Part shown: in pieces, positions 8,838-9,859 of the stretch
Layout: each line of letters starts with the position of its first letter
Numbering within the stretch: the stretch's first letter is position 1
Assembly (NCBI RefSeq): GCF_029227855.1
Contig: NZ_CP074356.1
Length of the DNA: 64,000 nucleotides
Strand: one strand, 5' to 3'
Source: Escherichia coli
GTDB taxonomy: Bacteria > Pseudomonadota > Gammaproteobacteria > Enterobacterales > Enterobacteriaceae
Position numbers and translations under genes: made by a program
Notes under the pieces: generated by a model
The model's input: the letters and a program-made list of their open reading frames with translations, nothing else
Databases searched by the model: none
Told to the model about the DNA's origin: nothing

Positions 8838-9605
8838 GTGACATATTCGATTGGCATTGATTCCGGCTCAACCGCCACCAAAGGGATCTTACTGGCTGAC
8901 GGCGTGATTACGCGCCGTTTCCTCGTTCCAACACCCTTTCGCCCGGCAACAGCAATTACTGAAGCCTGGGAAACTCTGCGCGAAGGGTTAGAGACAACGC
9001 CGTTTCTGACGCTCACCGGCTACGGACGGCAACTGGTGGATTTTGCCGATAAACAAGTGACGGAAATCTCCTGTCACGGGCTGGGCGCACGGTTTCTTGA
9101 GCCAGCAACGCGCGCGGTAATCGACATCGGTGGTCAGGACAGCAAAGTGATTCAGCTTGATGATGACGGTAACCTGTGCGATTTCCTGATGAATGACAAA
9201 TGCGCGGCGGGCACCGGGCGTTTCCTGGAGGTGATCTCGCGCACGCTTGGCACCAGCGTCGAGCAACTCGACAGCATTACCGAAAATGTCATACCGCACG
9301 CCATCACGAGTATGTGCACAGTGTTTGCTGAATCAGAAGTGATCAGCCTGCGCTCTGCGGGCGTAGCGCCAGAAGCGATTCTCGCCGGAGTGATTAACGC
9401 GATGGCGCGGCGGAGCGCCAATTTCATTGCTCGTCTCTCCTGTGAAGCGCCGATTCTGTTTACTGGTGGCGTTAGCCACTGTCAAAGGTTTACCCACATG
9501 CTGGAAAGCCATCTGGGAATGCCGGTACAAACTCACCCTGATGCGCAATTCGCTGGTGCAATTGGCGCGGCGGTGATCGGTCAGCGGCAGAGAAAACGCG
9601 CATGA
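8838..9605 (+). CDS. yjiL: Acyl-CoA dehydratase activator-like ATPase YjiL (BadF/BadG/BcrA/BcrD family)
   Basis: 255 aa from MTYSIGIDSGSTATKGILL (GTG start); ASKHA-fold ATPase motifs. Confidence 0.85.
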   Translation: MTYSIGIDSGSTATKGILLADGVITRRFLVPTPFRPATAITEAWETLREGLETTPFLTLTGYGRQLVDFADKQVTEISCHGLGARFLEPATRAVIDIGGQDSKVIQLDDDGNLCDFLMNDKCAAGTGRFLEVISRTLGTSVEQLDSITENVIPHAITSMCTVFAESEVISLRSAGVAPEAILAGVINAMARRSANFIARLSCEAPILFTGGVSHCQRFTHMLESHLGMPVQTHPDAQFAGAIGAAVIGQRQRKRA

Positions 9606-9859
9606 AAGAGTATCTGTTTTTATTTCACTCCACGGTCGGCGTCATACAAACCCGCAAGGCGTTGCAGGCAGCGGGCATGACTTTTCGCGTCAGCGATATT
9701 CCCCGTGATTTACGCGGCGGCTGCGGGTTATGCATTTGGCTGACCTGTCCGCCTGGCGAGGAAATTCAATGGGTGATCCCTGGGCATACGGAATCAGTTT
9801 ATTGTCAGCAGGATGGTGGCTGGCGCTGCATTGCACATTACGGGATTTCTCCGCGTTAA
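9602..9859 (+). CDS. Small Cys-containing protein, translationally coupled to yjiL (possible DUF3343-like)
   Basis: 85-aa ORF whose ATG overlaps the yjiL stop (ATGA); contains a GGCGLC motif; sits between yjiL and yjiK. Confidence 0.45.

Follow-up and report, generated by a model that had tools for sequence, protein, structure and literature searches.

What is the small, cysteine-containing open reading frame (ORF) that fills the gap between yjiL and yjiK in Escherichia coli, and what may its product do for the proteins encoded beside it? The question arises from positions 8838..9859 of a 64,000-nucleotide (nt) stretch of contig NZ_CP074356.1 (RefSeq assembly GCF_029227855.1), which is referred to below as the window. 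Taken together, the evidence makes it very probable that this ORF is ytiA, a protein-coding gene and the third and last cistron of a yjiM-yjiL-ytiA module, with a putative carrier or adaptor role.

The coding sequence of ytiA occupies 9602..9859 on the plus strand (85 amino acids (aa) and a stop codon, according to the ORF list, the annotation and Pfam). It begins with the ATG at 9602, in the context ...AAACGCGC ATG AAA GAG..., and ends with the TAA at 9857-9859, 64 nt ahead of the annotated yjiK start (GTG 9924). An earlier reading made from the letters only (the sequence-only reading) had described an 85-aa ORF filling the gap before yjiK, with an ATG overlapping the yjiL stop (ATGA) and a GGCGLC motif; both features were found as described, the motif at residues 39-44. 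The same reading did not recall the ORF as a named gene of strain K-12, and in this it was mistaken. In K-12 MG1655 (NC_000913.3), the counterpart located between yjiL and yjiK is ytiA (b4715, YP_009518833.1, 'uncharacterized protein YtiA', 4563668..4563925), and the gene is annotated throughout the RefSeq E. coli genomes, where the identical sequence is labelled ytiA, 'DUF3343 domain-containing protein' or 'putative Se/S carrier protein'. The 85-codon ORF is an already annotated and named gene, without novelty as such.

The K-12 protein shares with that of the window its location, its length of 85 aa, the ATGA overlap and 80 of 85 residues (94%). The window is not K-12, however, and carries another allele, with 94.2% DNA identity to the K-12 one and identical to that of ST131-type and other strains. 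A search of complete E. coli genomes recovered the 258-nt ytiA sequence from 5385 of 5426, with at least 80% of its length covered in 5381. At the protein level, YtiA matches the Pfam family PF11823 (Se_S_carrier, formerly DUF3343) with a score of 52 bits (cut-off 25; E = 5e-14), a positive outcome of the Pfam check for DUF3343 that the sequence-only reading had proposed. The match aligns residues 3-59 with profile positions 1-57 of 69, and this Se_S_carrier domain core (9608..9778, plus strand) is the conserved portion of YtiA. Its size of 85 aa agrees with the small stand-alone proteins of ~80-100 aa by which PF11823 members are recognized (Lin et al. 2015). Among the NCBIfam models none covers YtiA.

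Does this frame encode a functional protein? The length of the ORF alone is not significant, since spurious ORFs of 90-120 aa also appear several times in the ORF list, in other frames nearby, and the answer comes from comparative data. A protein search returned 142 YtiA homologues, with PF11823 on all of them where annotated, from Escherichia, Citrobacter, Klebsiella, Raoultella, Kosakonia, Atlantibacter, Phytobacter and others, down to ~54% identity. A scan of the locus in one genome per GTDB species yielded 52 loci (Enterobacteriaceae plus Hafnia), 50 of which had complete sequence; the counts given below for 52 or 50 loci refer to this set. The ytiA frame is intact (78-89 aa) and free of stops in 50/50 loci, while the five other frames are open in only 0-10 of the 50. 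Variability at codon positions 1, 2 and 3 is 0.19, 0.15 and 0.41, respectively, i.e. highest at the third, and the median ratio of non-synonymous to synonymous substitutions (dN/dS; Nei-Gojobori, all pairs) is 0.25 for ytiA, 0.10 for yjiL and 0.05 for yjiM. The coding-type substitution pattern together with a dN/dS of 0.25 indicates that ytiA is under purifying selection. Within the gene, dN/dS is 0.17 for residues 1-50 and 0.42 from residue 51 to the end; judging from these sequence comparisons, selection bears mainly on the Pfam core, with a loosely constrained tail. The sequence-only reading had taken the ORF for a real small Cys-containing protein gene and had named conservation of the frame and dN/dS as ways to check it; the open frame in all loci, the codon-position pattern, the dN/dS value and the Pfam match all speak for that view.

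The partners of ytiA proved to be constant. The gene yjiL (8838..9605, plus strand) lies directly upstream of ytiA in 52/52 loci, with essentially fixed spacing. It encodes a BcrAD_BadFG / acyl-CoA dehydratase activase-type ATPase (PF01869, E = 7e-75; TIGR00241, 358 bits), the predicted reductase partner of YjiM. In turn, yjiM (7677..8828, plus strand), the first gene of the conserved trio, was found upstream of yjiL in all 51 loci reaching that far (as a partial match in L054), with an identity of 81-96% in the loci with the full gene; the relatives listed by a separate YjiM homologue search were all at least 86% identical. The outer flanks of the trio vary, with yjiN and mdtM upstream and yjiK and yjiJ downstream.

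YjiM is a double-cubane-cluster-type anaerobic reductase of the HGD-D family, which matches PF06050 (E = 4e-121) and NF040772 ('double-cubane-cluster-containing anaerobic reductase'; 531 bits vs a cut-off of 350) and contains seven Cys residues at positions 40, 59, 78, 108, 273, 304 and 335. The published 7-Cys spacing (PMC7317905), used as an exact pattern, gave no match in YjiM, where the spacers between the seven Cys are slightly shorter. By their profile scores and this similar Cys pattern, YjiM and YjiL correspond in E. coli to DCCP and DCCP-R of Carboxydothermus hydrogenoformans. That system is two-component according to a review (PMC7317905), whereas the enterobacterial 'class II' module adds a third cistron, ytiA. 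YjiM has been assigned to the 'class II' double-cubane proteins; it is without the helices that close the channel and may thus accept a larger substrate (Jeoung et al., PMC7317905).

The trio also occurs beyond the 52 loci: in L055 (32% GC) YjiM, YjiL and YtiA are 81%, 65% and 39% identical, respectively, and in L058 (39% GC) 73%, 59% and 39%. In a further sequence (L066) the C-terminus of YjiL runs, through an ATGA overlap, into the gene of a YtiA homologue. Three metagenome proteins (P0126, P0142 and P0144) consist of a BcrAD_BadFG (YjiL-like) C-terminus joined to Se_S_carrier pieces. These joins probably result from a frameshift or an assembly error at the 4-nt overlap, although a genuine YjiL-YtiA fusion may be represented among them. 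Two longer proteins matching the profile (P0158 and P0202) were rejected as unrelated repeat proteins.

The junction between the second and the third gene is equally constant. In the window, the ytiA start codon overlaps the yjiL stop TGA (9603-9605) in the tetranucleotide ATGA (9602..9605, plus strand), and an overlap of the yjiL stop with the ytiA start was found in 50/50 loci: as ATGA in 30, as GTGA in 8, as a 1-nt overlap (TGATG, TAATG or TAGTG) in 10 and in other forms in 2. A start/stop overlap such as ATGA is an arrangement typical of translational coupling. With its start always overlapping the yjiL stop, ytiA most likely receives its ribosomes from yjiL, directly after they complete that gene, and the arrangement of the genes points to translational coupling of the two. 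No strong Shine-Dalgarno sequence precedes ytiA in the window (best anti-Shine-Dalgarno duplex -2.9 kcal/mol), and a promoter and terminator scan of 7400..10100 revealed neither a promoter-like site in the operon nor a terminator between ytiA and yjiK, which fits the proposed coupling. The ytiA-yjiK spacer folds no better than shuffled sequences (z = -0.35), and no Rfam family was detected in the ytiA region.

The GGCGLC motif is encoded at 9716..9733 (plus strand), with Cys41 at 9722..9724 and Cys44 at 9731..9733. A family alignment of 45 sequences, comprising 12 enteric and 33 distant members (the latter 20-38% identical to YtiA), showed only three invariant residues, F8, P34 and C41. Cys41 is thus present in 45/45 sequences, within the family motif P-R-x-L-x-x-x-C-G, and is the highly conserved single Cys that is the hallmark of PF11823; Gly42 follows it in 43/45. 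Cys44 is found in 32/45, i.e. CGxC is common in the family, not universal.

An AlphaFold2 model of YtiA built from the family alignment has a mean pLDDT of 91.3 and a pTM of 0.82. It consists of strands (E) and helices (H) in the order E2-8, H11-23, E28-32, loop 33-42, E43-49, H53-57, E63-70 and E73-79. In this confident model, Cys41 is predicted to close the loop 33-42 between strands 2 and 3 of a ferredoxin-like, putatively PII/CutA-like domain. The predicted beta-alpha-beta-beta-alpha-beta(-beta) topology, with a functional loop between strands 2 and 3, may be shared with the PII, CutA and DUF2179-type ferredoxin-like domains. A Foldseek search with the model returned only PII proteins, with E = 0.02 or higher, and a sequence search of the PDB with YtiA produced no significant match, the best being a spurious, Cys-rich one at E = 0.054.

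The best functional analogy for YtiA is offered by the TusA/SirA-family carriers (TusA, YedF and YeeD). They are likewise small alpha/beta proteins with one essential Cys, encoded in sulfur- and selenium-trafficking clusters and often beside DUF3343 genes. Homology to them was considered and rejected: the YtiA profile, compared with those of TusA, YedF and YeeD, reached an hhalign probability of only 16%, which makes YtiA an apparent analogue, not a relative, of these sulfur carriers. In the Pfam search YtiA gave no match to PF01206 (TusA/SirA), and the CPxP motif at the start of helix 1 is absent from it.

Gene contexts were sampled for 11 distant YtiA homologues. These are: (i) a trio with HGD-D and activase genes in three cases (P0135, P0139 and P0145), (ii) a YedE-type Sulf_transp gene in four (P0148, P0150, P0161 and P0216), (iii) TusA plus Aminotran_5 in one (P0154), (iv) a TusA-DsrE (YedF-like) protein in one (P0153), (v) YqeC in one (P0210) and (vi) an uninformative context in one (P0136). 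Besides the YedE-type gene, the P0216 locus contains TusA and an Aminotran_5 desulfurase/lyase-type gene, and the P0161 locus an Aminotran_5 gene and a LysR regulator. A selenium/sulfur-trafficking neighbourhood (YedE, YedF/TusA, selenocysteine lyase/cysteine desulfurase, SelD) was counted for 7 of the 11.

Published data agree with this distribution. DUF3343 was proposed as a selenium/sulfur chaperone with a conserved Cys, and a cluster of Slackia was described in which an activase gene, two DUF3343 genes, a selenocysteine lyase, YedF and an HGD-type subunit lie together near selD/selA/selB (Lin et al. 2015, PMC5322559). In addition, duf3343 is one of the top five genes by ORF overlap with selD (bioRxiv 10.1101/2022.04.13.486033), and SelD-containing genomes hold 955 of 970 NF040772 double-cubane proteins (bioRxiv 10.1101/2022.07.06.499078). 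The family members located beside YedE, YedF/TusA, selenocysteine lyase and SelD (PMC5322559) resemble YtiA in Pfam family, size (~80-90 aa) and the invariant Cys in the P-R-x-L-x-x-x-C-G loop, and those of Slackia also in standing next to an activase and an HGD-type subunit. The claim of the sequence-only reading that small Cys proteins recur beside 2-hydroxyacyl-CoA dehydratase/activator-like pairs was borne out by all enterobacterial loci with upstream sequence, by 3/11 distant homologues and by the Slackia cluster (PMC5322559).

Because of the gene context of YtiA and of its DUF3343 homologues, YtiA is most likely a Cys-based sulfur or selenium carrier or adaptor for the YjiM/YjiL double-cubane reductase. 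It would serve an ATP-driven, low-potential enzyme composed of YjiM (of the double-cubane [8Fe-9S] type) and YjiL (an activase-type reductase), and Cys41 would hold sulfur or selenium, as a persulfide or perselenide, that is passed to the active site of YjiM or taken over from it. Of the two elements, selenium is the narrower guess, because other DUF3343 genes have as neighbours those of YedE, YedF/TusA, cysteine desulfurase/selenocysteine lyase-type enzymes, YqeC and SelD, and because double-cubane reductases are found almost only in SelD-containing genomes. A still more detailed version can be put forward tentatively, with odds well short of even: YtiA as the physiological 'substrate arm' of a three-component enzyme, which would carry its cargo on Cys41, either a persulfide or a perselenide or else bound Se(0)/S(0), to the open active-site channel of YjiM and into it, where the cargo would be reduced to selenide or sulfide by ATP-energised double-cubane electrons driven by YjiL, e.g. 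supplying SelD in the anaerobic, selenium-poor gut.

Several observations weigh against a carrier or adaptor role. YtiA evolves much faster than YjiM (39% vs 73-81% identity in L055 and L058), and its C-terminal third is loosely constrained (dN/dS of 0.42) and replaced in O157:H7. Unlike the DUF3343 members of selenium/sulfur clusters, to which its identity is 20-38%, the E. coli gene lies away from genes mobilising these elements and has only yjiM and yjiL as fixed partners: neither selD nor yedEF nor a desulfurase gene occurs within ~6 kb on either side in K-12 or in the window. No selenium-specific DUF3343 subfamily was found by Lin et al. 2015 (PMC5322559), and the family is also present in SelD-lacking organisms. 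In the scan of one genome per GTDB species, neither Salmonella nor most Enterobacter yielded the trio, which suggests that it is dispensable for general selenoprotein synthesis. Finally, a literature search found no experiment on YtiA or on any DUF3343 protein; nearly all matches to 'ytiA' concerned the L31 paralogue of B. subtilis, and the single mention for E. coli came from an unrelated in-silico AlphaFold interaction screen.

An alternative that takes the motif at face value is that YtiA is a thiol-disulfide protein, in which a Cys41-Gly-Leu-Cys44 pair cycles and feeds electrons to YjiL/YjiM or regulates them, with no carriage of sulfur or selenium. The CGLC sequence is present in nearly all enteric members (Cys44 in at least 90% of the enteric alignment), CGxC occurs in 20 of the 33 distant ones, and the partner system is itself a redox enzyme. 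The second Cys is, however, missing in 13 of 45 family members, which have S, A, G or T instead, whereas Cys41 is invariant, and this implies that the conserved chemistry needs just one Cys. In the model, moreover, Cys44 is placed inside strand E43-49 of a ferredoxin-like fold. YtiA thus differs from thioredoxin-like CxxC proteins in the occurrence of Cys44 (32/45), in its fold and in its top fold matches, which include no thioredoxin, and a role as a CxxC redox protein appears unlikely.

Alternatively, YtiA could be a maturation factor without a catalytic part, delivering the bridging sulfide (speculatively selenide) of the YjiM [8Fe-9S]-type cluster or helping to assemble it. Strict co-inheritance with yjiM/yjiL and a single invariant Cys, as in sulfur-relay proteins, are compatible with this explanation, and a selenium-bridged cluster is a formal possibility to account for the co-occurrence with SelD (Haft, bioRxiv 10.1101/2022.07.06.499078). 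It is nevertheless a doubtful one: 8 of the 11 sampled DUF3343 contexts are without an HGD-D/activase neighbour, and the C. hydrogenoformans double-cubane system is described as having two components and no third protein (PMC7317905). Furthermore, a start overlapping the yjiL stop suggests an output in step with YjiL and not the small amounts of an assembly factor. It is very improbable that YtiA, in keeping with its predicted PII/CutA-like topology, is a small regulatory or ligand-binding subunit whose loop would insert into YjiL or YjiM and control the hydrolysis of ATP or the transfer of electrons, with the Cys sensing metals or the redox state.

The weakest explanation, i.e. a chance or decaying frame from which no functional protein is made, has a negligible probability, for although ORFs of similar length arise by chance nearby, a strong Shine-Dalgarno sequence is lacking and some E. 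coli carry truncated or altered versions (P0046, with 56 aa, and the tail replacement of O157), the Pfam match, the intact frame with coding-type substitutions in all 50 species loci and the Cys, Pro and Phe residues kept even in family members of 20-38% identity together exclude, on sequence grounds, a non-coding ORF.

Diversity of the region within E. coli was also apparent. For ytiA, 1937 genomes carry a sequence at least 99% identical to that of the window and 3344 one that is 90-95% identical, K-12 included, and by sequence comparison the species holds two deeply diverged allele classes of 8838..9859 (yjiL-ytiA). Synonymous divergence between the window and either E. coli L005 or Escherichia sp. 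L004 is ~0.3-0.5 in all three genes of the trio; this seems high within a species and suggests ancient alleles or recombination in the neighbourhood. The ytiA gene of O157:H7 and O145 strains is homologous to that of the window only as far as nt 211 (the differing 3' end corresponds to window positions 9812..9859), and YtiA is 88 aa long with a different C-terminal tail. In these strains, the type III secretion system effector gene espX6 is inserted downstream, before the SdiA-regulated gene (L065, 3001..5774), which places an insertion boundary inside the loosely constrained ytiA tail.

Downstream of ytiA, yjiK (9924..10784) encodes a protein with an SdiA-regulated domain (PF06977). Its GC content is 42.6% vs ~53% for its neighbours, and it adjoins ytiA in a few genera only, so that it looks horizontally acquired and separate from the yjiML-ytiA module. 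The mechanically longest yjiK ORF, from the ATG at 9813, would overlap ytiA by 47 nt; the annotated start is the GTG at 9924. The next gene, yjiJ, is intact in the window (10852..12030). In strain 720632 (L001), which is 100% identical to the query region, yjiJ is truncated by IS1 and followed by a brnT/brnA toxin-antitoxin pair (6451..8144), which again suggests that rearrangements are frequent immediately downstream of the trio. In K-12, a 12-codon (36-nt) gene, ytiE (b4823), is annotated upstream of mdtM (L002, 10693..10728). The sole Rfam match at gathering level in the whole window is IS102 RNA (RF00124, 73.6 bits) at 50995..51231 on the minus strand, which points to an insertion-sequence copy ~41 kb downstream of ytiA.

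As the result of a genome scan, ytiA adds nothing, being already named and assigned to a Pfam family; its value is that of a pointer to an uncharacterised protein. YjiM/YjiL represents, in E. coli, the double-cubane [8Fe-9S] reductases, for which the question is that of the physiological substrates, and DUF3343 is a widespread family with a suspected part in selenium/sulfur trafficking. Enteric bacteria fuse both questions in one module of overlapping genes, present in a tractable host, which makes ytiA a convenient handle on them. If YtiA did act as the tentatively proposed substrate arm, a double-cubane cluster protein would for the first time have a physiological reaction assigned to it, and DUF3343 a biochemical role.

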